This document shows, piece after piece, positions 48,580 through 64,000 of a stretch of 64,000 nt of DNA. The position numbers and the translations under genes were made by a program. Origin of the DNA: an uncultured Solirubrobacterales bacterium (GTDB taxonomy: Bacteria > Actinomycetota > Thermoleophilia > Solirubrobacterales > 70-9); contig CAWCJB010000004.1 of assembly GCA_963795675.1 (NCBI GenBank), positions 306,376-370,375 on the forward strand. Direction: 5' to 3'. Under the pieces are notes generated by a model. That model saw only the letters and a program-made list of their open reading frames with translations. It had not been told where the DNA came from and ran no database searches. Position 1 is the first letter of the stretch, and the number at the start of each line of letters is the position of its first letter.

Positions 48580-50031
48580 GTGAAGACGCCTGACGTGATC
48601 GTTGTCGGCGCCGGCGCGGCCGGTGCCTGGGCGGCCAAGGAGCTGGCCGAGCGCGGGCTCTCCGTCACCGTGCTCGATGCCGGGCCGCTGGTCGCGGCGC
48701 CCGACGGCACCGGGCTGGCGCGAAGGCCGGTGCAATCGCACTGCTACGCCTGCACCGAGGAGGCCGCCTACCTCTTCGTCGATGACCTCGACAACCCCTA
48801 CGAGGTGGCCCCTGGCACCCAGTTCAGCTGGCTCCGCGGCCGCCAGGTCGGCGGTCGGATGCTCACCTGGGGGCTGACCTCGCCGCAACTGGAGGACGAC
48901 GAGCTGAAGGCCGCCTCCGCCGACGGGATCGGCGAGAACTGGCCGCTCGCCGCCGCCGACCTCGCCCCCGCCTACTCGCGGGTCGAGGAGTTCCTCGAGG
49001 TCGGGCGAGGCCCGCTGAACGCCGCCGAGCGCGGGTTGAAGGAGGCGGTCGAGGCCCGCTGGCCGACCCGCCGGGTCGAGGCGAGCCCGAAAGCCTGCAA
49101 GGAACCGCTGCGGCCGCTGCAGGCCGCCCTCGCGACCGGTCGCGTGACGCTGCTCGCCGACACGATCGCCGAGCGGCTGCTGGTCGGAGCCGACGGCGAC
49201 CGGGTGAGCGGCGTGGTCGTGGTCGATCGGCGCAGCGGCGCCCGCGACGAACTATCGGCCCGGGCTGTCGTCCTCTGCGCCTCGACGCTCGAGTCGACCC
49301 GCCTGCTGCTCAACTCGGCCGGTGGCGATCACCCCGACGGCCTGGCGAACTCCTCAGGCGCCCTCGGCCGCTACTTGATGGACCACACCTCTGGGGTCTA
49401 CTTCGAGGGCCGCGCTCCCCGCCGCGAGAGGTCGGCGGAGGAGTCGCCGAGCGAAGGCGGCTTCCTGGGCGGATTCCGCAACGTCACCGAGCCGGTCGAC
49501 GGGTTCCATCGCAGCTACGAGGTCGAGTTCCAGGTGCTCCCCGGCAGCGGGCGGCGGAGGCCACTGCGGCGCGACACCAGGGACACCTTCTGGATGTGCG
49601 CCTTCGGCGAGATGCTGCCCGACCTGGAGAACCGGGTCGAGATCGATCCGGGCCGGACCGACGCCTGGGGTATCCCCACCCTGCTGGTCAGCGCCCGCCA
49701 CTCCGACAACGAGCGGGCGATGGCGGCCGATCAGGCCACCACGCTGAAGGAGATGCTCGACGTCGCCGGCTTCGAGATCACCGGCAGCGAAACCAAGCTC
49801 GCCCCGATCGGCATGACGGCCCATGAGATGGGCACCGCGCGGATGGGCGCCGACCCGGCCACCTCCGTCCTCAACTCCTGGAACCAGGCCTGGGACATAC
49901 CCAACCTCTTCCTCACCGACGCCGCCAGCTTCACCTCCAGCGGCCACCGCAACCCGACCCTGACGATCATGGCCCTGACCGTCCGCGCCTGCGGCCGGCT
50001 GGCCGACCTGCTCGAGGGCGGCGACCTCTAA
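48580..50031 (+). CDS. GMC-family FAD-dependent oxidoreductase
   Basis: DVIVVGAGAAGAWAAKELAERG. C-terminal ...HEMGTARMG... and ...NPTLTIMAL.... Confidence 0.8.
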   Translation: MKTPDVIVVGAGAAGAWAAKELAERGLSVTVLDAGPLVAAPDGTGLARRPVQSHCYACTEEAAYLFVDDLDNPYEVAPGTQFSWLRGRQVGGRMLTWGLTSPQLEDDELKAASADGIGENWPLAAADLAPAYSRVEEFLEVGRGPLNAAERGLKEAVEARWPTRRVEASPKACKEPLRPLQAALATGRVTLLADTIAERLLVGADGDRVSGVVVVDRRSGARDELSARAVVLCASTLESTRLLLNSAGGDHPDGLANSSGALGRYLMDHTSGVYFEGRAPRRERSAEESPSEGGFLGGFRNVTEPVDGFHRSYEVEFQVLPGSGRRRPLRRDTRDTFWMCAFGEMLPDLENRVEIDPGRTDAWGIPTLLVSARHSDNERAMAADQATTLKEMLDVAGFEITGSETKLAPIGMTAHEMGTARMGADPATSVLNSWNQAWDIPNLFLTDAASFTSSGHRNPTLTIMALTVRACGRLADLLEGGDL

Positions 50032-50073
50032 GCGGCGACAGCACAACCGATGCACCCGACGGCAGGAAAGCCG

Positions 50074-50319
50074 CTAGGCCGTGCGACTCTCGAAAAAGCG
50101 ACGCGTGGGCGGAAGCAGGAGCAGGCAAAGTTGGAGTAACCCGAACGCGTTGGCCCACCAGGTACCGCTTCCGATCACGAGGCCGATGACGCCGATCAGG
50201 GCAAAGCCCGCGACCGTTGCGATCCAGAGCCAGCGAACTGCGCGGAGCAGAAAGTAATCCCAGGCGGCCCCAAAGACGACGAAGAAGATCGCGGGTTTGA
50301 CGTGGTTCGATCGCGCCAA
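50074..50319 (-). CDS. small membrane protein (81 aa)
   Basis: Three hydrophobic segments. No family recognised. Confidence 0.4.
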   Translation of the reverse strand: MARSNHVKPAIFFVVFGAAWDYFLLRAVRWLWIATVAGFALIGVIGLVIGSGTWWANAFGLLQLCLLLLPPTRRFFESRTA

Positions 50320-50426
50320 GAGGAAGACCAGATTGACACCCGTAGTCGCGACGTACGCTCAAAGCGACCAAGGAATTTTCTCAGGGTTGATCCCCATGAA
50401 AGCCCGGCCGAAGGTCGCGGGTTCGC

Positions 50427-51314
50427 TCAGTGGCTTTCGGCCGCCGACTGAAGGTGCGATTCAAACTCGCTGGTCGCGTTGAACACTTCGTCCGGGTCCG
50501 GTAGCCCGATCTTCGGCACCCGACCGAAGTCGACGTAGTCGATGGTCATGTCGGTGGTGGTCGACTCTTCCTCTTCGCCCACCGTGCCCGAGACGACCAC
50601 CTGCATCCGCCGCACGCGGTCCTGCCCGTCGATCCAGACGTCGGTATGCAGCGCCGAGACGTGAAGCTTGACGCCGAATACTTCTTCGGCAGCAGGCAGG
50701 ATGCCCCGGAAGTGCGTGGTCGGCACCCCGCCGATGTCCTCCTTGCCGATCTCTTCCGCGCCCTGGACGCGTTCGAGGATCTTCAGTCCTTCCTCTGGCC
50801 CGGCATCGGCCGAGGCCGCGGAGCCGAGGCCTTTGACCGCAGACGAAAGATCCAGCTCGAGCCACTTCTTCCCTTCCGGGAACGATTCGAACTGATCCGA
50901 GCTCACATAAGTCGTCGTGCCGTTCACGATGGCCAGGGCCTTAACTTCGCGGCCGGTCTTGTGGCCCTTGACGGTGAACGTCCCGCGGGACCGGCCGCTG
51001 TCGTCGAAGACCAGGGATCCGGTCTCGGTGAGCCCTTCAGGCGTGGTCGCCGAGGTGACCGTGGCATGGAACACGGCGCGCCCTCCCGGCTCACGCTGCG
51101 TGATCTCGGCCGCATTCGCGATCGCGTTGAGCGGCCCGCCGCCGCTGCCGCCCCCTTGCGCCACGACGAAGGCGACGATGGCGATGGCCACCACCGCCAG
51201 GCCGGCGCCGACCCACCGACGGGCCCGCTGACGTCCAGGCGCATCGCCTTCGACCCCCGCAGATTTCAGCCCGCCCCCCACGCTTGGATGAGGATAATCG
51301 TTTCGGTACGCCAT
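50427..51314 (-). CDS. membrane-anchored/exported hypothetical protein
   Basis: MAYRNDYP..., one TM segment (WVGAGLAVVAIAIVAFVV), then a soluble domain of about 230 aa. The track start is 51368. Confidence 0.5.
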   Translation of the reverse strand: MAYRNDYPHPSVGGGLKSAGVEGDAPGRQRARRWVGAGLAVVAIAIVAFVVAQGGGSGGGPLNAIANAAEITQREPGGRAVFHATVTSATTPEGLTETGSLVFDDSGRSRGTFTVKGHKTGREVKALAIVNGTTTYVSSDQFESFPEGKKWLELDLSSAVKGLGSAASADAGPEEGLKILERVQGAEEIGKEDIGGVPTTHFRGILPAAEEVFGVKLHVSALHTDVWIDGQDRVRRMQVVVSGTVGEEEESTTTDMTIDYVDFGRVPKIGLPDPDEVFNATSEFESHLQSAAESH

Positions 51315-51469
51315 CGGCTTGGGGAAGGAGTACGAAAAACGAACCGTGATGGCCCCGAGACCTCCCACGCGCTCACGTTCGATTGGTCGGCACCTTTAGA
51401 GGCGGTGTAGGTTGCGCGGATGCGCCGGATCCCTTTCCCATCAAGACTCGATACGACGGAGAAACTCAG

Positions 51470-51970
51470 ATGAGAGCTTCCAAGAAGATCGGCCGCCTTT
51501 GCACAACTTCCGTGCTCCTTAGCCCCTGTGTCTTCGCTGTACTAGTGAGCTCTGCGAGTGCGATCGGTGGTTCCACCGTGACCTTCGAGGAACTTGACAA
51601 GGGCTCGACCTTCCATTTCGTCGACAACGCGCCGAAAGCCACGCTCAAGAACGGCGCGTTGTTCAGCCCGGGCGACATGCTGATCGTCACCAACCCGCTC
51701 GCGATGGGAGGCAAGGTCGTAGGCAAGATCCGGACCGTCTGTACGGCGACCGGTGCCGGCAACACCAAGAACCCAGCCGCGGCCGGCTTCGACTGCACCG
51801 GGATAGGCAGGATTCCGGGTGGATCCTTGGTCCTCGTAGGGGAACTGGGCGAAGGGCCTGTGGAAGGTGCCATCACGGGTGGCACGGGGATCTACGCGGG
51901 AGCGAGGGGCACCTTCGTCTCCAGGAACGGAAAAAGCTTCTCGACGACCACGGTGACGCTGCTCGAATAG
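51470..51970 (+). CDS. secreted small beta-barrel protein (dirigent/allene-oxide-cyclase-like)
   Basis: Signal peptide. ...GD.LIVTNPL...G..VGKIRTVC.....ITGGTGIYAGARGTF... pattern. GGAGA Shine-Dalgarno before the ATG at 51470. Confidence 0.5.
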   Translation: MRASKKIGRLCTTSVLLSPCVFAVLVSSASAIGGSTVTFEELDKGSTFHFVDNAPKATLKNGALFSPGDMLIVTNPLAMGGKVVGKIRTVCTATGAGNTKNPAAAGFDCTGIGRIPGGSLVLVGELGEGPVEGAITGGTGIYAGARGTFVSRNGKSFSTTTVTLLE

Positions 51971-52123
51971 GGACCATGGTCTTCGACCGGCATCCTCGGC
52001 CATGCGGGATCAACGGAAGGAGGTGAGTGAGATATTCGTGCGACCGCCGAACATGTTGACTTTGTTCGCGTCGGGAGCCCTCAGGTCGTGAGAACGTGCT
52101 TAGCGGCGACGGAGCCTGCGGTG

Positions 52124-53134
52124 CTAGTTGTGGACGATGTAGGCGCGTCGACCGTCAGGCGCGACCGAGATCACGAGCGGGAATGGTCCGACTTCGATCG
52201 CCTTGCCGACCACCTTGTCGGTCTTGGTGTCGATCACCGAAAGGGTTCCCGGTCCCAAACCGGTCACATAGGCGCGAGCGGCGACAGGGCTGATCGCGAT
52301 GGACGTCGGCCGATGCGCCACCCGTATCGGAGCGGCAGCCGGTCGACCGGTCTTGGCCGAGATCACCGAAACCGTGCCTTCTCGCGCATTGGCGACATAG
52401 ACGCGCTGCCCGTCAGGGGTGATGGAGACCGAGGTCGGACTCTTTCCCGTCCTGATCTTCCTGGCGGCGACAGTGTTCGTCGCGGTCCGGATGACGGAGA
52501 GGGTGTCGTCGCGAATGTTGGCCACGTAGACGCGACCGCCATCCGGAGCGACGGCGAGCGCCAGCGGATCCCGTCCGACCTTGATCGCGCGAGCGTCGAC
52601 CTCGTCGGTCGTGGTGTCGATCACAGATACGGTGCCGGCGCGGGTGTCGGTGACGTAGGCGTGAGTGCCGTCGGGCGAGATCGCGATGGCCGTCGGAGCG
52701 CGGCCGACCTTGATCGTCGCCACCACAGTGTCGGTCGCGGTATCGATCGCGGAGACCGAGTTGCTGCCGGAGTTGACGGCGTATACCCGGCTGCCGTCCG
52801 GGGTGATCGCGATTCCTTCCGGGTCGGGCCCGATCCGTATCGGGCTGCCGATCAGTCGGTCGGTCGCGAGATCGATCACCGCGACGCTCCTGTTTCCGGA
52901 GGTGACCACATAGGCCTTCTGACCGTCTGGACTGATCGCGATCGAACTCGCGTAGGGCCCGACCTTGATCGGCTTGGCCGCCGGCCGGTCGGTCGCGGTG
53001 TCGATGACCGCCACCGTCCGACGGGGAGCGAGGATTCCGCTTTGAACTCTTGCCTCAGCGACGAATGCGAACATCAGCGACCCCGCGACCAACAGCACGA
53101 GAGCGGCCCATCCACGGAGGCCTTTCTGAATCAC
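52124..53134 (-). CDS. YVTN-family seven-bladed beta-propeller repeat protein, exported
   Basis: Seven repeats of ...P..IAI(S/T)PDG..(A/V)YV.N.....VSVID..T.....I.VG.... N-terminal signal/anchor. Confidence 0.8.
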   Translation of the reverse strand: MIQKGLRGWAALVLLVAGSLMFAFVAEARVQSGILAPRRTVAVIDTATDRPAAKPIKVGPYASSIAISPDGQKAYVVTSGNRSVAVIDLATDRLIGSPIRIGPDPEGIAITPDGSRVYAVNSGSNSVSAIDTATDTVVATIKVGRAPTAIAISPDGTHAYVTDTRAGTVSVIDTTTDEVDARAIKVGRDPLALAVAPDGGRVYVANIRDDTLSVIRTATNTVAARKIRTGKSPTSVSITPDGQRVYVANAREGTVSVISAKTGRPAAAPIRVAHRPTSIAISPVAARAYVTGLGPGTLSVIDTKTDKVVGKAIEVGPFPLVISVAPDGRRAYIVHN

Positions 53135-53212
53135 CGGCCGAACCTAGCGTGTTCAGCCCGCGGAGCCGCCGCGCTCCGGATCGCCCCACCTGACGCGCTT
53201 TGGTTCATAGTC

Positions 53213-54898
53213 TCAACTTGAGCTGCCGATGCCAAGGGAGGCGATATCGACTCCGAAGGTCGGGTTCGAAACTATCTTCCCAAGGTCGATCCGCCTTGAG
53301 ACGAAGACCGGCACGAGGTTGTTGCCGATCGGAACCCACGGGGCGAAGTGCATGTAGGTCCGGTCCAGTGCGGCGTAGCGGCCTTCCGGCGTCGTCGGCG
53401 CGGGCCGCGTCTCAAGGCGGTCGATCATCTGCGTCAGGTCAGGGACGAAGAATCGCGACAGGTTCTGGTTGTAGTAAGGGGTGGCGCGAGTGCCGAGCGT
53501 TTCCCTGAAGAAGTCATCCGGATCCGGATAGTTGGCGAAGTAGCCGCTGAGCCCGGCGTCGGGATTTGCCTGCCCGGGGCCTTCGATCAAGGCGAAATAG
53601 CGTTCCGGTTCGAGGACCTTCAGGTGGACGGTGAACCCGAGTTCTTCGAGAACCGCGGCGAAGTAGACGTTGAACTCGACTGGCGTGAGGTCGCCGGGTT
53701 CGCCGTAAGTCCAGAGGGTGATGTCGCGGACCGACGGGTTCGCCGCGCCGATCATCTGCCGCGCCTTGGCCATGTCGTGGGGATAGAGAGAGGACTTCCT
53801 GTATCCCGGCAGGTCGGGCGGAAGGATCTGCTGCGTCGGTGACACCTGGCCGCCGGAGAGGAGGCTGAAGACGTTGCGGTTGATGGCGAAGTTGACCGCG
53901 CGGCGGACCCGGACGTCGTCGAAGGGGGGCTTCGAGGTGTTCAGCCAGAAGTATTCGGTGCTGAGGGTGGGCTCGAGGCGGACGCGAGACGGGAACCGGT
54001 GCCGCAGGGACACGTAGTCGGCACCGGACATCTCTTCGGATATCCAGTCGATCTTCCCCTTTTCGACGCCCCTTATCGCCTTCGCCACGCTGCGGACCAC
54101 CCTGATCCTGATCGTGTCGAGATGCCCGCTCGGGATCCGCGGCATCAACTTGTGGTTGCGCGACCGCCACTCGGGGTTCCGCTCGTAGGTCCAGCCGCGC
54201 CGCGTCGAGTGGGTGATGACGTAAGGACCGGTGGCCGGGGGCGGATCGAACGTTTGATTGTGGATCGGCGTGCCCGGCGGCACCGGCGCCGTGAACGTCA
54301 TCGCCAGCTTGCGGGCGAAGGACCGTTCCGGCCTGACCAGATGGATCACGATGCTCCCCGTCCGGTCGTCGGTGACGATCCCTGGCATGCCCCCAAGCCC
54401 CGTCCTCTCGAACCTTTTGGCGCCGACGATGTCGTCGTAGAAGTAGTCGGGGCCGTAGCCCGAATCGAGGCGGAACATCCGTTCGACCGTGAACCTGAAA
54501 TCCGACGCCCGGACCGGCTCACCGTCCGAGTAACGGAGGCCTCTGCGGAGGTGCAGCGTGTAGGTGCGGCCGTGGTCGGTGATCCGCGGCAGACTCCGGG
54601 CGAGACCGGGAATGACCTCGCTGCCGGCCTTGCCGCCTGCGTGTCTATAGGTGAGCAGCGGGATGTAGGTGTCGTAGATCACGTCCAGGCTGTAGTTGCT
54701 CCAGGCCACCTGAGGGTCAAGGTCGGGACGCCAGGTGTATGCACCCGTGACGGTCCGCGCGGCTCGTCCATGCGGCTCTTGTTGACGCCCATGGGGTGGC
54801 TTACCGCCGGCGCCTGCGGACCCTGCGTTGCTCAAGAGGGCGGCAGCCGCGACGAGGATCCCGAGCCAATACCTATTGAGCCGCAAGGGCGAGATCAT
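53213..54898 (-). CDS. ABC-transporter substrate-binding protein, family 5 (peptide/nickel type), orphan
   Basis: 561 aa with a signal peptide and SBP_bac_5-like length and motifs. No permease or ATPase genes are adjacent. Confidence 0.7.
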   Translation of the reverse strand: MISPLRLNRYWLGILVAAAALLSNAGSAGAGGKPPHGRQQEPHGRAARTVTGAYTWRPDLDPQVAWSNYSLDVIYDTYIPLLTYRHAGGKAGSEVIPGLARSLPRITDHGRTYTLHLRRGLRYSDGEPVRASDFRFTVERMFRLDSGYGPDYFYDDIVGAKRFERTGLGGMPGIVTDDRTGSIVIHLVRPERSFARKLAMTFTAPVPPGTPIHNQTFDPPPATGPYVITHSTRRGWTYERNPEWRSRNHKLMPRIPSGHLDTIRIRVVRSVAKAIRGVEKGKIDWISEEMSGADYVSLRHRFPSRVRLEPTLSTEYFWLNTSKPPFDDVRVRRAVNFAINRNVFSLLSGGQVSPTQQILPPDLPGYRKSSLYPHDMAKARQMIGAANPSVRDITLWTYGEPGDLTPVEFNVYFAAVLEELGFTVHLKVLEPERYFALIEGPGQANPDAGLSGYFANYPDPDDFFRETLGTRATPYYNQNLSRFFVPDLTQMIDRLETRPAPTTPEGRYAALDRTYMHFAPWVPIGNNLVPVFVSRRIDLGKIVSNPTFGVDIASLGIGSSS

Positions 54899-55525
54899 GG
54901 GCAGCGACCAGCGGTCCGTCCGGCGATGGCCTGGACGCCGCTGATGATCGGTTCGGTGACTTCGTTGCTCTTCGGTCGGAAGATGCCGACCATGAACAAG
55001 CAGCTCCCCTCAGTGAACAGGCCGCTCCCGACCCCGACTTCTAGCCCGAGTTCGTCAGCCGCCTTGCTAGGGAGAAACGCAAAGGCGACAGCCTTGGAGA
55101 CGCCGGGGACCTTGAAGCGTCGCAGGATGGGTAATTTCGGCGTCCCTTTGTTTCGCATCGCTCGCAGATCGAAGTCTTCCTTCAACCTGGCCTTCATCTC
55201 AGCTCTCGCGCCTGCCGCCGTTTCGAACTCGAAAACACTTGAGATGCCCCTGGCCGCCGGTTCGGTCCGGTCGTGGAGCCGGACGAGGGCCGCTTCGACG
55301 AAGCCCTCCGATGCATAGCGCCTGATTTCGGGCTCGGCAGGACTTTCTCCTGCGCCGTCTCTCACCGCCGAGACCGTCCGGAACACCTGGGCCTTGCCGG
55401 GCAACGACCCCAGGCATGTTTCCCGGCTTCACCAGATAGGAGACGAGCGGGGAGGGGTCGCTGGCGTTTGCCACTGAGGGCAATATCCCGACCAAAACCA
55501 GCGTCGCGGCGGCCAGAAACCACAT
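54895..55525 (-). pseudogene. exported hypothetical protein interrupted by a +1 frameshift at a G4 (C4 on the plus strand) run
   Basis: Signal peptide MWFLAAATLVLVGILPSVANA (ORF 55199..55567) continues in the frame of ORF 54895..55404 after 55408-55411. ATGA overlap with the downstream SBP start. Confidence 0.55.
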
Positions 55526-55606
55526 CGTCCGCCGACAGGAGCCCGAGATCGGTTCAATCGCCGTCATAAAGTCCTTCGGTTTCAGGTCGCCCAGCTTTCC
55601 TAGGTC

Positions 55607-55855
55607 TCAGGTCGCCGAGATCAGTGCGCCACCTAACGGTACTTCGCTTCCCCAGCGATAAACGCCGAACACGATCAGAGTAACGAACAGGCCGAGTACC
55701 GCCGCTAGCAGTTCGCCTCGAATCAGACAGGCGACAATTGCAAGCCCGCAAACCGCTGCCATGACAAGCCAAGTACCGACATTCCATTCATTTTCCTGCC
55801 CTAAGTATGGCGCCGTTGGTGACAACTCTGGCCCGGTCATCTGATTTCTTAGCAT
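55607..55855 (-). CDS. small two-TM membrane protein (82 aa)
   Basis: Two hydrophobic helices. Located in the lower-GC region. Confidence 0.4.
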   Translation of the reverse strand: MLRNQMTGPELSPTAPYLGQENEWNVGTWLVMAAVCGLAIVACLIRGELLAAVLGLFVTLIVFGVYRWGSEVPLGGALISAT

Positions 55856-55900
55856 GCACCCGCTCCATGAGCCCTTACGCCTCGGAACGCAGCGCGACGG

Positions 55901-56242
55901 TCATTCGGGCTCGCAGCCCTTGAGGGACAAGGTGGCTGGATCAATTGCTTCGCCGTTCGCACGCGCACGCTCTTCAGCCTTTCTGCTCTCTTCGAGCACC
56001 ATTTGGCGTATCTCCTTGCATTTTCTCTGGACCTTCGCGGTGCTGCTGCTAGTCAGACCTCTGGCCCCGGCTTCTCCGCCGGTTTGGTTGCCACCGGTTC
56101 CACACGACGCCATCCCAACGGCGAGCACAAGAACCACACACATCATCGAGACCACCGAGAGACGCGAACTGCGGATAGGACGGAGCCGTACCGTCGCCTT
56201 GCTTGAGCACTGAATCATGTTGACCTCTCTCGCCGCATCCAC
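55901..56242 (-). CDS. small lipoprotein; candidate immunity protein for the orphan RHS tip
   Basis: Lipobox-like VLAVGMASCG. Lies immediately downstream of the orphan RHS cassette. Confidence 0.5.
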   Translation of the reverse strand: MDAAREVNMIQCSSKATVRLRPIRSSRLSVVSMMCVVLVLAVGMASCGTGGNQTGGEAGARGLTSSSTAKVQRKCKEIRQMVLEESRKAEERARANGEAIDPATLSLKGCEPE

Positions 56243-56297
56243 GGCCTACGACTCCGGCCCGGCCGGAGCGCCTTCGACGCGATGGTAACAGCAGCAG

Positions 56298-57311
56298 CTA
56301 GGCATCTATCACCACCACTTGGCCACACTTTTCTCCGCTCGCATTCGCGCCAGCCAAGAGCACGCAATATTGCAGCGAACCTATTTCATCCAAACGGAAT
56401 TTCATTCCGATCGGCAGGGACCCGTTCAATTCTGGCGGATTATGGAGTCCTGAAATGGGCCCGGTTCCGCCAGCCGCAATATAGAACGCCCTGACCTCAA
56501 CCGGTTCGCTACACGAGTAGCTGATGTTGCCGGTGATATACGCGGTGTCGCTACCGACGGAGCCGACAATGTGGGAAAGTGACGGATGAATCGTGCAGGG
56601 TCCGACCTGTGACGCCGGGGGGCGACGCGGCTCTCCGCCGCTTCCGCCCCCCCGGTGGGTGGAGGCATTCTTCGGGGGATGTTGCTTGCCCGCTGCACCG
56701 GCACTCCCACCTGCGCACTTTCCCCCTGGCTTGTTCCTGATGCACGTACCTTCCAGGTCAAAGGTATTGACCGGATTCTGATCGACATAGTCATACGCAT
56801 TTGCCGATCCCCCCGTGACAGGATCAGAACTCAGGAACCGGCCAAGCTGCGGGCTGTAACTTCGGGCACCCATCTGGATCACGCCGGACTGGAGTTCGGT
56901 ACGCCGTAATTTTCCACCCAGCCAGCCGAATCTCCCCGCGCTACCCGACACCGGCTCGCCAAATTCATCGAATCGATAGGTAGCCAGCAGTTTCGTCGCC
57001 GTCGGACTCGAACTCGCCGAGGCCACCACATCGCCGTGCAGCTCCGTGAGGTCAAAGGTCGTCCCGCCGCTTTCCTGCACCGCGGCGAGTTCCCCGCCGA
57101 TCCCGGCTATGTCGCGGGTCCAGTTCGTGCCCCGTTCGGTCCACGCGACCGAGTCGGAAGGACCGTCGTAGTGGAAGTTCCGCCGGAAGGTGTCTGGTAG
57201 GCCGAATCCCGCCAGACAGAGCCGATCACGTCCATGGAGTTCAGCTGAGTTCGGTGGAGTCGGGGACCACATTCGGGACCAAGCTTTGGGAGGACAAGAC
57301 GAGAGGTACAA
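56298..57311 (-). CDS. orphan RHS repeat-associated core plus alternative C-terminal tip (CT2); probably not independently initiated
   Basis: Residues 46-189 are collinear with residues 1450-1594 of the large RHS protein ([15 protein letters not shown]...[32 protein letters not shown]). The tip then diverges. Confidence 0.75.
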   Translation of the reverse strand: MYLSSCPPKAWSRMWSPTPPNSAELHGRDRLCLAGFGLPDTFRRNFHYDGPSDSVAWTERGTNWTRDIAGIGGELAAVQESGGTTFDLTELHGDVVASASSSPTATKLLATYRFDEFGEPVSGSAGRFGWLGGKLRRTELQSGVIQMGARSYSPQLGRFLSSDPVTGGSANAYDYVDQNPVNTFDLEGTCIRNKPGGKCAGGSAGAAGKQHPPKNASTHRGGGSGGEPRRPPASQVGPCTIHPSLSHIVGSVGSDTAYITGNISYSCSEPVEVRAFYIAAGGTGPISGLHNPPELNGSLPIGMKFRLDEIGSLQYCVLLAGANASGEKCGQVVVIDA

Positions 57312-57425
57312 GCAGGATTCGACCTACTTGTATTTGTTCTCCCCGATCCCGCTCGGCTGAAAGGTCGGGGTTGTCGCGTCGGGCGGCTTCAGGTCGTCGA
57401 GACGTGCCCGGCGGCGGCCCGGGTG

Positions 57426-57761
57426 CTAGTTGTGGACGATGTAGGCGCGTCGACCGTCAGGCGCGACCGCTATCGCGAGCGGGAAGGGTCCGACCTCGAT
57501 CGGCGTGCCGACCCTAACGTTGCTATTGGTGTCGATCACCGAAAGAGTGCCCGGTTCCATGCTGGCCACATCCGCTCGATCGGCAACAGGGCTGAACGCG
57601 ATGGTCGTCGACCTATGCGCAACCCGTATCGGGGCGCAGGCCAGCCTGCCGGTCTTGGCTGAGATCACCTGAACCGTGTCGTCCCGCGCGTTGGCGATGT
57701 AAAGGCGGCGACCGATCGGCGAGATCAACGCCCGTCCGGATCCGGCCGTGACTTTGCTGGT
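57426..57761 (-). pseudogene. truncated copy of the 3' third of the YVTN gene
   Basis: Translation is collinear with the last 110 aa or so of 52124..53134. An in-frame TGA lies at 57762-57764. The DNA similarity continues about 60 nt past the stop. Confidence 0.75.
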
Positions 57762-57863
57762 TCAGATGGGGTCACTTCCCCAGTTCAGGTGGGTCGGCCG
57801 GCGTTCTTGGATCCATAGCTCTGGCTCGTTGATGATGTACCAGATGCGCGGGCCGTTGCGGGC

Positions 57864-58601
57864 TCAGCCACACTCCGCGGGGGCAATTCCGCGTAGGTAC
57901 GCCCCTCGCCCTCCTTCCATACCTGCGACAACCGACACCTTCTGCCCGGCGGTCAGGCAGGGCTCGACCAGATAGGCGAATATGGAAACGTCCCTGCGCA
58001 GCCCGAACTTCCTGGCGAGAGTTCCGCTCATTACCGCCACAATTGGGCGCGGCCCGGGTGCGAGGCCTTGATCGGCGACCGACAACGTAAGGTCTTCCAC
58101 CCTCCCTTCGACCGCTCCGGACACGACGGTGACCTTCGAGACGCCGTTCCGGCCCGGATTGAGTCCACTAGGCCCTATCCGGCACTGCGCATGACAGATC
58201 GGCGCCCCCGCGGAGACATGGACGCAAGCGCCTCCGCTGGTGGCACCTCTCGATGGTTGTTCCAGCCCATAGCACAGTTCCCTGGACCCGTGATGGGCGC
58301 GGAGGTGGGCGACGAGGCGAAACCAGCCGCCCAGCCTTCTTCCGCACCCTATGACGGTCGGACTGACGAGGACACGGTAGGGTCGAGGGTATAGGCTCGG
58401 CGGGATCTTGATCGGCGGATCTTCCGATCCTCGGCATCCGCCGTAATCAGACCTGACCATCGCCGACACATCGACCTGCTTCGACGCGACCTGCTTCGAC
58501 GGTTCAGGTCCCTGCGCCGTTCTCTCCACGGCATATGCAACACCTATCGACACGAGCACCAGGAGCACCGAGAGCAGCGCGATTTTCCCTGGTCGTCTCA
58601 T
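57864..58601 (-). CDS. exported Cys-rich hypothetical protein; candidate immunity protein for RHS tip CT1
   Basis: Signal/anchor MRRPGKIALLSVLLVLVSIGVAYA. Lies immediately downstream of the RHS gene. Confidence 0.5.
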   Translation of the reverse strand: MRRPGKIALLSVLLVLVSIGVAYAVERTAQGPEPSKQVASKQVDVSAMVRSDYGGCRGSEDPPIKIPPSLYPRPYRVLVSPTVIGCGRRLGGWFRLVAHLRAHHGSRELCYGLEQPSRGATSGGACVHVSAGAPICHAQCRIGPSGLNPGRNGVSKVTVVSGAVEGRVEDLTLSVADQGLAPGPRPIVAVMSGTLARKFGLRRDVSIFAYLVEPCLTAGQKVSVVAGMEGGRGAYLRGIAPAECG

Positions 58602-58654
58602 CGGTCGACGGGTCGGGGGGTCACGGTGTAATTCGAGGCTGGCTGATTCATCTA

Positions 58655-61600
58655 TTAGTAATGATTTTCGACCACGATTTCATGCTCGTAGCATTTTCGT
58701 TCACTCTGAGCATCGCCGACCGCGACGACGCATACGGTTAGGATTTCCCCCGTAGACACGGCCCCGGAATAGGCGACGGGGGTTAGCAGCAGGGTGCCGC
58801 TGGGACCCCTGGCAGTCGCGGTTTCGCTGGTTTGCCCCCTGAAGGTCAGGTAGGCCGAAACGGAGACCGATTCTCGGGCTTGGTAGTTGAACGCCGCCCC
58901 TACGAGGCCACCGGCGCATTTGCAGCCCCCGCCAGTTACGGTGATGGTGTGGCTTTGTATTAGCGGTGGCTTTCTTGGCTGGCTACCCTTGTGGCCCCCG
59001 CCGCCGTTCCTTCCCTTGCCATAGTGATTTTCATGGCCCGGGCTTTGCCCAGGGCATACCCTGCCGGAATGCTGCCTCGCGTGAGCACACGTACCTCTGA
59101 GGTCAAACGCATTTATCGGATCCTGGTTCGTGTAGTCGTATGCGTTGGCTGAGCCGCCCGGGACTGGATCAGGGGTCAGGAATCGACCGAGTTGCGGGAT
59201 GTAGCTCCTGGCTCCCATCTGGATCACGCCCGATGATAGTTCGGTACGTCGCGATTTGCCTCCCAGCCAACCGAATCGGCCCGGAGTGCCCGACTCCGGT
59301 TCGCCGAATTCGGAGAATCGAGAGGTGCCAAGGAGTGCCGTCGCGGTGGGACTCGAACTCGTCGAGGCCACCACGTCTCCGTGCAGGTCGGTGAGGTCGA
59401 AGGTGGTCGCCCCGCCGCCTTCCTGCACTGCGGCGAGTTCCCCTCCGATCCCGGTGATGTCGCGCGTCCAGTTAGAAGCGCGTTCGGTCCACGCGACCGA
59501 GTCGGAAGGACCGTCGTAGTGGAAGACTTCGGTCCCTTCGAGGCCTCCACCGCCCTGCAGGCGGGCGCGCTGGCGGCCCGTGCCGTCGAGTTCGTAGCTG
59601 TTGGTGATCCCGGCCTGTTCCTGGCGGGCCACCATGTTCGTGGCGTAGTAGGCGGTGGTCAGTTCATGGCCGCCGGCGTCCGCGGCCGGCAGTTTGGTGA
59701 TGCGTCCGAAGGCGTCGTAGGCCAGCCCTCCGCCCATCAGGCGGTCGGCCGCGTCGTAGGTGTAGTTCTGGATCGCGCCGCCCGAGGTCACGCACGCCCC
59801 GCCGATCCCCGGTTCACGCGTCGCCTTGGTCAGGCGGTTGGAGTCCGCGTCGTAGATGTAGGCACGGGTCGTGCATTCGCCCCTGGCCGGGGTTTCCTGA
59901 GCTTCGCTCAGGCGACCATCTTTGTCGTAGACGTAGTGGTCGCTGACCAGCGAGCCGTTGTCGGTGATGATCTGGCCATAGATCGAGCGTTCGAGCTGTT
60001 CTTCGAACCAGGTGCAGCCTTTTTCCCCGCACGAGCTCGTCTTCGTGTAGGCGAGTTTCACCGGTTCGCCCGCCACGTTGTAGCCCGTCGTCGCCGTGAG
60101 GCCGTTCGGCATGCCTCTGGCGATCAGCGAGCCGTCGGCGTCGTAGGTCCCGGTGAAGGTCCCCACCCCGGAAACTTCCAGGCTGGTGAGGACGCCGGAG
60201 TGTTCGTCGTAGTGGAGGGTCTGCGTCCCCTTCCCGTCGGTGACCGTCGCCGGCCGCCCGTCGAGGTCATAGGTGGCCGTCGTCCTGTTGCCGTCGGCAT
60301 CTTCATAGGTTTCGACCCGACCGAGGGCGTCATAGGTCGTGGTCGTCGCCTGGCTGTCGAAGCCGGTGCATTCTTTTTCTTCGCAGACGGACTGCTGCTT
60401 CGTCGGCAACCCGGTGGTCGGGCTGTAGGTGATTTCGGTCTTCGGGACCGCCATGCCCCCGCCTTCGACATGGGTCGTCAGCTGGCGACCGGCTTCGTCG
60501 TAGACGCTGGTCGTCGTCCGGACGCTTTCGAAGCCACCGGCCGGGCTTTCTTCGACCACCTGGGTCGGCTCGTCCAGATTGTCGTAGGCGGAGAACTTCT
60601 TGACCAGGAGTTTCGGGCGGTTTTCGCCGCTCGCCTGGGCGCCCGGTTCGATCTTGCAGGGAAGCCCCGCGTAGCTGGGCGCGCCCTGGCATTCGCCGCT
60701 CCCGGTCGCCTGGTAGTAGACGGTCTTCGTCGTCCCGGCACCTGCCCCTTCGGGGCTGCTGGGCTGGCGGGTTTCGAGGACCTGGCCGGTCGTTTCGTCA
60801 TAGACGGTCACCGACCGGAGGTCGAGGCCGGTGGGGTCGACGACCGTTTCGTAGGGCTTCAGGAGGTTCCATCTGTAGTGGATCAGGGTTTCGCGCCGGT
60901 CGGCGTCGGATGGATGGCCGGCGATGGCGGCGCCGGTGATCTCGGTCGTCGGCAGGGCCGGGGGCGGGGTGCCGGGCGGTGGGGTCGGCGCCCCTTCGTC
61001 GTAGCCGATCACTTCGTGGATCCGGGCTTCCGCCGTTTCGCCCGATTCCAGTCGCACGTGATGCAGCGGACCCCACGATTCGAGCATCTCCGTCCCTTCG
61101 GCGTTGTAGACGGAGTGGGTGTCGAGTTCGTGCGAGCGTTCGGCGGGGTGTTCTGACTGCAGGGCGAGGAGCCGGTTCTCGGGGGTGAGTTCCCGGACGA
61201 TGTCGCCTTTGGTGTTGAATTCCTGCGTGCCGATCGAGGGGCCCGGCTGGCCGGGGGGAGACGGGGAGGCCGTGTCGACCTCGCGTCCGGTGGGGTCCAT
61301 GTAGTGGACGGTCGCCTGCGAGTAGTCGCGGTAGGGCGGCGTCGACTCGACCCACTGCTCGACGGTGTTCGCGCCGGTGTCGGCGATCCAGATGTAGCCG
61401 CCCGAGACGACGGCGTCGGCCGGTTTCACGAGGGCTTGTTCGCCGTTGGAGGGGATCCCGAGTTCGCCGACGTATTCGCCCGAGGTGGTGAATTGCTGAA
61501 GCCGACTGTTGCCGGTGTCGGCGACCCAGATATGGCCTTCTTCTCCCCAGGCGACGCCTTCGGGAGCGCTCATCTGTCCTTCTTCGCCGCCGACTGAGCC

Positions 61601-64000
61601 GAATGACCCCTTGTTCTGGAGGAAGGTGGTGGTGTTGTACTTGAGCTCGACCACCCGGTTGTTGCCGCTGTCGGCCACCACGGCTTCGAGCCCTTCGTCG
61701 CCGACGGATATCCCGGTCGGGCCTTTCAGCCCGGTATAGGTCGCGAGGTCTTTGCCCGTCGAGAGGCTCAGGAGCTGGACGCGGTTGTTGCCGGTGTCGG
61801 CCACCCAGAGCCAGACGCCTTCGATCCCCACCCCGGTGGGGCCTTTGAACTGCGCGTTCCCGCTGCCGAGCGATCCGATCGTCTTCACGAACCCGCCGGT
61901 CGAGGTGAAGACCTCGATCCGGTTGTTGCCGGTGTCGGCGACGTAGACCCGCGAGCCGTTGGCCACGATCCCCCGCGGATGGCTGAGCTGGCCGTTACCC
62001 GAGCCGGAGGTGCCGAACTGCCTGATCAGGGTCCCTTCGGAGGAGAACTCCTCCACGCTGCTGTGTTCGGTGTCGGCCACCCAGACGTGGCCTTCGGGGT
62101 CGACCGACAGGGCCCGTGGCGAGGAGAATCCGCCGCCCGCGACTTCGGCCCCGGCGAATTTCGCCGCCCGGGTGAACTGTTCGTGGGGGACCTGGGTCGG
62201 CGGGAACACCGCGGTCGCGTCGACCGGGTAGTCGCCCTGCCCCCATCCGGCGACCGTCGACGGGCTCATCGTGTAGGGGGAGCCGGGTCCGCTCAGCGGG
62301 ACGTCGTAGACGACCGAGGTCCTCGCCTTTTTCGGGCTCGCCAGGAGACTCGCGCGGCCCGCGCTTTTCAGCCTGCCGTGGCTGCCGTAGGGGTAGTAGG
62401 TCATTTCCCACGGTTCCTGGCCCGGGGGGCTGATGGAGGTCATCTGCGCATTGATTTCGGGCGACGAGTATCCGTAGCCTTCGACCAGTTTCGGGCTGAT
62501 CCGGGGGTCCCACTCTTCGCTCAGCTGGCCCGCCGTGTCGTAGCCGTAGTCGGCCACCACCTGACTCGTCCCGTGGGCGTCGTAGTAGGTGATCGTCGCG
62601 AGGCGTTCGCCCGTGCCGCTCCCTCCCCAGTGGCTCACCGGCAGGTATCCGAAGAGCAGCGTGCGGCATCCGGGAACGCCTCCCGAGCTCAGTTCACCAC
62701 AGGTCACCCCCGGCTGGGGCGGCGCGACCTCGCGCATCAGCCGCAGCGATTTGCCGTGCGGTTCATAGACCATCTTGACCGCGCCGGGACCGGTCTTGAA
62801 GGTGATCGCCTTCGGCAGGTAGGTGTGTTCGCTGCTCTTGACGAAGATGGTGTGGGTGCCGTTCGGGTCGGTGAGGCCGATGTGTTCGGCGTCTTCCCTC
62901 ACGAGGTCGAATTCCTTCGCGTATGCCGGCGCGACGTAGGTCGAGCCTTCGATGCCGAATTCGATCGCCGAGCCTTCGCTGTCGATCAGTTCCATCCACC
63001 GTTCTTCGGGCTGGGCTTCTTCGACCATCCATTCTTCGCACGATTCGGCCGGGCAGCCCGACCCGCATGCCACCGTTTCGCCTTCTTCGTCCCAGCATTC
63101 GCGTTCGTACCTCGGCGGGGTGGCCGGGATCACCCGTTCTTCCAGGCTGACCCAGGCGAGGCCCTGGTTTTCGGCTTCCGCGGGGACCGTGGGCTGCCAC
63201 GCGTACCCGAGGGCTTCCGACTGCCCTGGCAGGTTGCCGCCGATCGTGGAGTCGTAGGTGCGGGCGAATTCGAGCGTCGCTTCGGTGCCCGGGACCGGGA
63301 CCGATACGTCGGTGCGCTGGACGGTGAAGGCGCCGGTCAGCAGGTCGACGGTCCCCGGCCCGATCGATTCGGTCGCGTCGGTCGGCACGCGGCTCCCGTT
63401 TCGTTCGTGGACGAATTCGGTCGTCACCGGGACCGTCGCGCCGCCGCTCGCCACCCGGGAGTTGTCGAAGACCGCGCGGAATTCGACGCCTTCCTGGCGG
63501 ATGTATTCCCAGTGGAGCGCCGGACAGGTGCGAAGGTCGAGGTAGACGGGTTCGCTGCGCCGGGCTTCGGTGGAGACCGGCATCGGCCAGGAGACCGGTT
63601 CGCCCCCTCCGTCCAGCACGCATTCGGCGGGTAGCGTCCTGAACGTCGTCGACAGGCCGGGGGCCTTCATCTGGAAGGTGAGACCGGTGTAACCCGGTGG
63701 ATTGGTCCCCCATTCGGCCTGGAGGGTGAAGTAGCTCGCCCGCTTTTCCCCCGCCTGCGGATAGAGGAGCTTGACGGATTCCGGGGCCGCCGGATAGGCG
63801 GCCGTGTTGAAGGTCCAGGCCGACGGCACCGGGTCGGCGACCCCTTCGGGGCCGACGGCTTCGATCGTCAAGGTATGCGGATCTTTTCCTTCCAGGTGCT
63901 GCGGCAGCGCATAGGGCGAGGAGCAGGCGACCGGTTCTTTGTCGAGGGTGCAGTGGAAGGTCGCCCCTGCCGCGTTGGAGTGGAATTCGACCGGCCCTGG
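58655..64000 (-). CDS. RHS/YD-repeat protein with an internal six-bladed NHL propeller and a polymorphic C-terminal tip (5' end outside the window)
   Basis: YD repeats (YDA.GR, YD.DGR...), six NHL blades (aa 575-842 of the track ORF) and an RHS core ending ...[17 protein letters not shown]. The frame stays open upstream of the listed TTG all the way to position 64000. Confidence 0.9.

Follow-up and report, generated by a model that had tools for sequence, protein, structure and literature searches.

The window analyzed here is a 64-kb stretch of DNA from an uncultured Solirubrobacterales bacterium (contig CAWCJB010000004.1), whose last 14 kb hold an RHS locus with all genes on the minus strand. 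The locus encodes a large RHS/YD-repeat protein ending in a variable C-terminal (CT) tip, here called CT1, a small partner gene directly downstream of this tip, and an orphan module in which a remnant of the RHS core end carries a second tip, CT2 (Table 1). CT1 and CT2 are very probably homologous and belong to a single family of RHS C-terminal cargo domains, which is small and unannotated.

Layout of the RHS locus and its two tips

The repeats of the large protein are recognized by the YD/RHS model PF05593 (E 4e-9), and TIGR01643 and DUF6531 also match. The Rhs-associated core (TIGR03696, Rhs_assc_core, E 7e-12) covers residues 1542-1593 of the listed open reading frame (ORF) and directly precedes the variable CT1. 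The frame continues without a stop codon up to base 64000 (window 63872-64000), so that the true N-terminus and any secretion signal or N-terminal domains there lie outside the window. The initial annotation had placed the tip at residues 1595-1738 of this ORF; the span is right, but the numbering counts from an internal TTG and not from the true N-terminus. The core motif of the protein has Leu where Pro is usual (FDLRG). In known Rhs proteins, this motif is the start of the cleaved, encapsulated cargo, and with the motif present CT1 is a candidate for autoproteolytic release and may be set free at this point. The direct-repeat families D4 and D6 (window 61357-62095; spacing 69, 138, or 279 nt) reflect the NHL repeats of the RHS gene at the DNA level and do not form a separate element.

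Both tips start where the Rhs-associated core ends, exactly at the coordinates initially proposed, and most of the layout described for them was found as well. A Gly-rich basic linker and a PR(K/R)PP motif are present in both, followed by a beta-rich domain of about 100 amino acids (aa), which is borne out by the AlphaFold models described below, and the terminal C-V-x3-G-x3-S-x2-K-C is exact in CT1 and CT2, with 12 residues between the Cys (i, i+13). The first Cys loop is likewise common to both tips, but its spacing is not the x9/10 first given: CT1 has C-x10-C and CT2 has C-x8-C. In the CT1-type relatives found in other genomes and metagenomes this loop is x7 or x8, and it is absent from P0008, an orphan RHS module whose tip is discussed below. 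The linkers of the relatives are His-rich and their basic-Pro motifs looser (QPKRP, HKRPP, and HRKPP). The C-x12-C spacing at the end of the domain, however, is invariant in all seven tips listed, P0008 included, and the number of Cys is even in every tip (4 or 6).

The orphan ORF matches the core end of the large ORF with 50% identity over 319 aa (BLASTP, E 3e-82). At the DNA level, its core is 76-90% identical to positions 59088-59525 (direct repeats D3 and D5), and these repeats end at the tip boundary (56743 and 59088). Between the main and the orphan ORF, the 76-90% DNA identity of the core drops to 24% protein identity exactly at the tip. The GC content is ~0.63 in window 50000-64000 versus ~0.70 elsewhere in the window, and the GC content at third codon positions (GC3) is 0.84 in the RHS core and 0.64-0.70 in CT1, the CT1 partner, the orphan core, and CT2. 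The lower GC and GC3 of these cassettes fit horizontal exchange.

Table 1. Features of the RHS locus (window coordinates; all on the minus strand)
Feature	Position	Strand	Length	Description
CT1	59089..58658	-	144 aa	begins right after FDLRGT
CT1 linker	58979..59089	-		C-x10-C loop, Gly/His-rich basic stretch, start of PRKPP; predicted disordered
CT1 beta-sandwich domain (predicted)	58658..58978	-		terminal hairpin pair C120/C133 encoded at 58691-58732
CT2	56744..56301	-	148 aa	begins right after FDLEGT
CT2 parts	56301..56744	-		C-x8-C loop, Gly-rich linker, PRRPP, predicted beta-sandwich; terminal Cys pair at 56325-56366
Partner gene of CT1	57864..58601	-	245 aa	Sec-type N-terminal signal (MRRPGK-IALLSVLLVLVSIGV-AYA), then 8-Cys domain
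Large RHS gene as listed	58655..63871	-	1738 aa	ORF
RHS/YD-repeat delivery protein	59090..64000	-		DUF6531, four NHL repeats, RHS repeats, Rhs-associated core
Orphan ORF	56298..57311	-	337 aa	core remnant and CT2
RHS core-end remnant of orphan	56745..57311	-		
YVTN/YncE-like fragment	57426..57728	-	100 aa	between CT1 partner and CT2 orphan
113-aa ORF	55901..56242	-	113 aa	directly downstream of CT2; lipobox-like VGMASC; weak lipoprotein-signal matches (NCBIfam)
82-aa ORF	55607..55855	-	82 aa	two hydrophobic segments

Homology and distribution of the tip family

Two beta-rich, Gly/Ser/Ala-rich domains that end in a Cys hairpin could resemble each other by composition or convergence alone without being related. 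Such a reading would fit the low identity of CT1 and CT2, which is just 24% over 109 aa (BLASTP, E 4e-5), as well as the Smith-Waterman score of the domain without the linker (47 versus 28±5), which 14 of 2000 shuffles reached and which is marginal alone. It would also fit the probability of only 56% obtained when CT2 was compared as a single sequence with the CT1 family in hhalign, and the generic sandwiches among the structural matches. On the other hand, the Smith-Waterman score of the complete tips is 87, compared with 35.4±6.4 in shuffles, and was reached by none of 2000. When the profile of ten CT1-type tips was aligned with a profile of CT2 and the P0008 tip, hhalign returned a probability of 93.5%, an E-value of 2.3e-7, and a score of 44.1 over 70 columns. 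By comparison, when the columns of the CT2 profile were shuffled 300 times, which preserves composition and conservation, the score was 11.5±2.3 on average and 21.2 at most, and the reversed profile scored 10.5. As the observed score lies far beyond the column shuffles, the similarity of CT1 and CT2 is not compositional.

The tip of P0008 bridges the two groups, being 34-36% identical to CT2 and 30-34% identical to the CT1-type tips. In a database of ~0.2 Mb, it matches CT2 (E 1.7e-10) as well as the CT1-type tips of loci L009 (E 2.7e-7) and L002 (E 4e-6), and it combines the CT2-like YSC..PV and YCVL motifs with the CT1-like SER.C motif. An exhaustive phmmer search with CT2 through 1.84 billion representatives retrieved only CT2 itself and P0008 (E 8.5e-5, 36% identity). 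A word-index homolog search with CT2 alone gave no match, and in the same type of search the mixed alignment A3 added only two CT1-type fragments. Furthermore, the proteins encoded downstream of P0008 and CT1 are homologous (E 9e-11). Together with the matches of P0008 to both sides, the shuffle controls, and the invariant C-x12-C spacing, this effectively refutes a merely compositional or convergent origin of the resemblance. The profile-profile score, the P0008 bridge, the homologous partners, and the matching predicted strands agree with the initial proposal that CT1 and CT2 are diverged members of one family.

Within the family, the first alignment of the CT1 subfamily contains 42 invariant columns, and the polar residues that are invariant in this subfamily include H47, R72-E73-S74, S129-E130-R131, Y134, and H136. 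Across both subfamilies, by comparison, the invariant columns are limited to Gly, Ala, Leu, Val, two Cys, and one Ser. The identities of tip and partner fall together across loci, and two tip subfamilies with two partner subfamilies that behave in this way are expected of co-diverging cassettes of common origin.

The CT1-type relatives comprise P0001-P0006, P0009, and P0010 as well as the tips of L008 and L009, all of which are 55-87% identical to CT1. The whole family amounts to about a dozen loci, five of them among 185,579 species genomes and four in metagenome contigs of the Joint Genome Institute (JGI), where a scan with the partner profile turned up no more than these four, each with a CT1-type tip. 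The genome matches are all metagenome-assembled genomes (MAGs) labelled Solirubrobacterales or, in a single case, Actinomycetota, and these carriers fit the 70% GC of the window. The plasmid collection contained no match to the tips or the partner, the gene-position index held no record of the orphan protein of the window, and the public sequencing runs with matches were only soil and freshwater metagenome DNA (at most 12% of the sampled words), with no RNA. In the source records, all relatives are named "hypothetical protein" except for one "RHS repeat-associated protein".

Two CT1-type tips sit at the end of full-length RHS proteins, one of 1875 aa in L008 and one of 1860 aa in L009. At its N-terminus, the L009 protein has a signal peptide, suggesting that it is exported by Sec like the WapA-like proteins. 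The L008 protein (L008:351-5978) contains an exact tandem duplication of a ~200-aa segment (...AYAFDETSGTTAHDAAAHHEATVENGSW...IEANKGA) after its NHL repeats, which arose either recently or as an artefact of the assembly. Orphan modules are found next to an integrase in L001 and next to a transposase in L005, and in two loci the tip is frameshifted and split over two reading frames (L004:10097-10317 and L014:2124-2439). The initial annotation regarded two paralogous tips in one locus as unusual, which is a fair if minor point: the main RHS genes of L004 and L005, the two other loci where this was checkable, do not match the tip family, and the window is the only place seen with a paralogous main tip and orphan tip.

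Predicted fold, exported partner, and possible function

The AlphaFold model of CT1, built from a six-sequence CT1 alignment, is disordered in residues 1-33 (predicted local distance difference test, pLDDT, <50) and all-beta in residues 44-140, where the pLDDT is mostly >90. Its strands comprise residues 44-56, 60-83, 91-107, 116-124, 129-137, and 141-143. Judging from these strand limits, the arms of the last hairpin would be in register, and a cross-strand disulfide between C120 and C133 is plausible. The CT2 model was built from CT2 and the P0008 tip only, with no CT1-type sequence, and shows the same strand order and lengths (pLDDT 65; predicted TM-score, pTM, 0.57). Foldseek searches of the Protein Data Bank (PDB) with both models returned the immunoglobulin (Ig)-like domain of GH2 enzymes, antibody V domains, gamma-adaptin ear (GAE) domains, and Ig domains of the major histocompatibility complex. 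The best E-values were 3.8e-3 and 1.3e-3 with none at or below 1e-3, query-normalised TM-scores of 0.44-0.58, and identities of 6-22%; the GH2 exo-beta-mannanase entries 6byg and 6byc are within the top 50 PDB matches of both models. In BFVD, the CT1 model gave two marginal matches to unnamed proteins (E 4e-4 and 9e-4), the rest being FN3 or Ig-like domains above 1e-3. The models thus resemble an Ig-like beta-sandwich at the level of the fold class only.

The family had been described as unrecognised, and this holds in all searches made. Pfam at E<=10 gave no match for CT1, CT2, or the P0008 tip and no toxin or Ntox model, NCBIfam at E<=1 gave none for CT1 and CT2, the best E-value of a sequence-profile search of the PDB was 0.58, and Pfam, NCBIfam, and Foldseek provided no enzyme family or structural match for the tips. 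A confident match to a characterised domain was not obtained, the Foldseek matches being generic Ig-like sandwiches. Two other folds were considered for the tips, that of the L,D-transpeptidases (YkuD) and that of ColE3-like RNases, and both were rejected, as neither had a profile or structural match. The homology of the tips, their family membership, their synteny with the partner gene, and their predicted fold class are direct results of this analysis.

A homolog of the CT1 partner of ~240 aa lies directly downstream of every CT1-type tip found, and further copies are present in L006-L009 and L011-L014. Identity is 73% in L001 and 69-94% among the CT1-type copies overall. The gene downstream of P0008 encodes a 245-aa protein if read from the TTG at L005:11253; it is ~28-31% identical to the CT1 partner (31% in the match with E 9e-11), and 8 of 8 Cys are aligned. 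Inspection of the six partners revealed in each case a basic n-region, a hydrophobic segment of 15-17 aa, and a small-x-small site (AYA or VVA); the eight Cys are conserved in all of them. For the partner, Pfam and NCBIfam contained no family match, the best NCBIfam match being noise (E 0.05). Beside the frameshifted tips of L004 and L014, the partner is intact and 77-94% identical to that of the window, which fits an immunity gene better than a cofactor. The partner is the likely cognate immunity protein of CT1. The suggestion of a disulfide-bonded, extracytoplasmic function was borne out weakly and indirectly, namely by the even number of Cys in the tips, the Sec signal and eight Cys of the partner, and the signal peptide of the L009 protein.

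Taken as a whole, the locus is best explained by homologous cargo tips of a Sec-type RHS polymorphic-toxin system with an exported immunity partner and action in the cell envelope, an explanation that we consider reasonably probable. The large RHS protein of a soil Solirubrobacterales would carry CT1 as cargo, the tip consisting of a disordered Cys-loop and Gly/His-rich basic-Pro linker followed by a predicted ~100-aa Ig-like sandwich, whose last hairpin would be stapled by C-x12-C. Recombination between the core ends, which are 76-90% identical, could put the orphan CT2 in the place of CT1. Toxicity, the immunity role, an extracytoplasmic site of action, and non-enzymatic action are what we infer here. 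The export of the partner, the even number of Cys in the tips, and the lack of catalytic-looking polar residues common to the subfamilies point to action in the envelope by binding or perturbing. The tip would then act on the outer side of the target membrane or within the cell envelope, where it would probably bind or perturb an envelope or membrane target and use no conserved enzymatic site, and the exported 8-Cys partner would block it outside the cytoplasm. We consider this envelope-acting toxin and immunity mechanism about as likely as not. More tentatively, and with a good deal of doubt, the tips may represent a new class of RHS cargo, in which a disulfide-stapled Ig-like domain harms monoderm targets non-enzymatically from outside the membrane. 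An immunity protein with 8 Cys, either secreted or anchored in the membrane, would neutralise it, and the CT1 and CT2/P0008 types would be specificity variants that arose in an arms race of tip and partner.

An alternative is that the tip is an enzyme toxin acting in the cytoplasm, for example a small all-beta metal-independent RNase such as ColE3 and several Ntox domains, and that the Gly/His-rich linker serves translocation. Disordered Gly-rich linkers serve import in some bacteriocins. A table in PMC3482391 shows that nucleases of all-beta fold are frequent among RHS tips, and the invariant H, R-E-S, S-E-R, Y, and H of the CT1 subfamily would suit an enzyme. These polar residues, however, are not kept in CT2 or P0008, the Pfam search at E<=10 described above found no toxin or Ntox domain, and there is no nuclease among the Foldseek matches. 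Moreover, the partner has an export signal and eight conserved Cys; to our knowledge, the immunity proteins known for cytoplasmic nucleases are cytoplasmic. A cytoplasm-acting enzyme is therefore considered unlikely.

Further points weigh against envelope-acting toxin tips with an exported immunity partner. The polar residues invariant in the CT1 subfamily could form an active site that is lost or changed in CT2. The signal peptide was judged by inspection, and a tblastn search of the 64 kb with five partner proteins found no partner homolog or pseudogene for CT2. As the family is very small, conservation carries little information, and the confidence of the CT2 model is only moderate (pLDDT 65). 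Finally, Ig-like sandwiches are typically binding or spacer modules rather than toxins.

In a second alternative, the tip is a non-toxic Ig-like adhesion or recognition module, the Cys-rich partner is its surface ligand or receptor, and the RHS scaffold serves kin recognition or signalling. The predicted Ig-like fold class, the lack of a catalytic signature common to both subfamilies, and the presumed extracytoplasmic nature of both proteins would be in line with such a role, and a signalling role has been raised by Poole et al. for a signal-bearing YD-repeat protein of Myxococcus (PMC3150448). On the other hand, the loci bear the hallmarks of polymorphic toxins, including orphan modules with core remnants, mobile elements, and low-GC cassettes. 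The tips evolve faster than the partners, the partner is retained beside frameshifted tips, and the tip is placed after the core motif, where the cargo starts in known Rhs proteins. Adhesion or recognition is thus, in our view, improbable, and envelope-acting cargo tips with an exported immunity partner remain the preferred explanation.

The neighbourhood of CT2 differs from that of CT1. The 113-aa ORF directly downstream of CT2 is unrelated to the partner family, and GC3 fails to distinguish it from the antisense ORF. Neither this ORF nor the 82-aa ORF has a homolog in any related locus. If it is coding, the 113-aa ORF is a possible replacement immunity gene for CT2. In addition, the 3' end of a YVTN/YncE-like beta-propeller gene (52124-53134, minus strand) occurs twice: positions 52107-52406 and 57409-57708 are 81% identical at the DNA level, the second copy being the 100-aa fragment of Table 1. 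The propeller copies are ~5.3 kb apart, and the segment between them, with an SBP_bac_5 gene, a 169-aa ORF, small membrane ORFs, and the CT2 orphan, looks like an insertion or rearrangement.

Comparison with known systems

No RHS literature was found for Solirubrobacterales, an order of the class Thermoleophilia and a poorly studied soil lineage. If confirmed, the tips and their partners would extend the catalogue of polymorphic toxin domains by a toxin-like cargo family and an immunity-like family. Their main interest lies in a possible envelope-acting, non-enzymatic RHS cargo in this little-studied actinobacterial order, as the exported Cys-rich partner points to action on the monoderm envelope, which is far less explored than the nuclease tips. 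Moreover, two diverged paralogs and a bridge, with or without a cognate partner, form a natural set for the divergence of tip and immunity specificity. The general understanding of RHS systems is unchanged.

The T6SS (type VI secretion system) pairs Tae/Tai and Tle/Tli act on the envelope and include exported immunity proteins, their effectors being amidases and lipases that are delivered into the periplasm. Like these, the putative immunity protein described here has an export signal and conserved Cys, which implies neutralisation outside the cytoplasm. Unlike these, the tip is a predicted beta-sandwich in which the two subfamilies have no catalytic motif in common, the host is a monoderm actinobacterium, and delivery would rely on a Sec-exported RHS protein. 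The tip models resemble the Ig-like domains of GH2 enzymes, GAE, and antibody V in fold class but are not related to them in sequence, and the C-terminal C-x12-C staple and the position at the end of an RHS protein are specific to the tip family.

The closest parallel is provided by the Rhs/WapA-type polymorphic toxin systems with orphan rhs-CT/rhsI modules (Poole et al. 2011, PMC3150448; Zhang et al. 2012, PMC3482391). As in these systems, the window contains a YD/RHS shell and an Rhs-associated core, and conservation is lost exactly where the core ends. Directly after the tip comes a small gene, which varies together with the tip in the case of CT1 and P0008, with no partner homolog for CT2. 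The orphan module retains a piece of the core able to support recombination, mobile-element genes are found near related loci, and a full-length relative has a Sec signal like the WapA-like proteins of monoderms. In contrast to the Rhs/WapA systems, neither the tip nor the partner matches a toxin or immunity family described so far, the main and orphan tips are members of one family, and the window orphan is without the usual partner gene. The tips and their partners form a new cargo and partner family; the kind of system to which they belong is well known, and the polymorphic toxin locus is otherwise an ordinary one.

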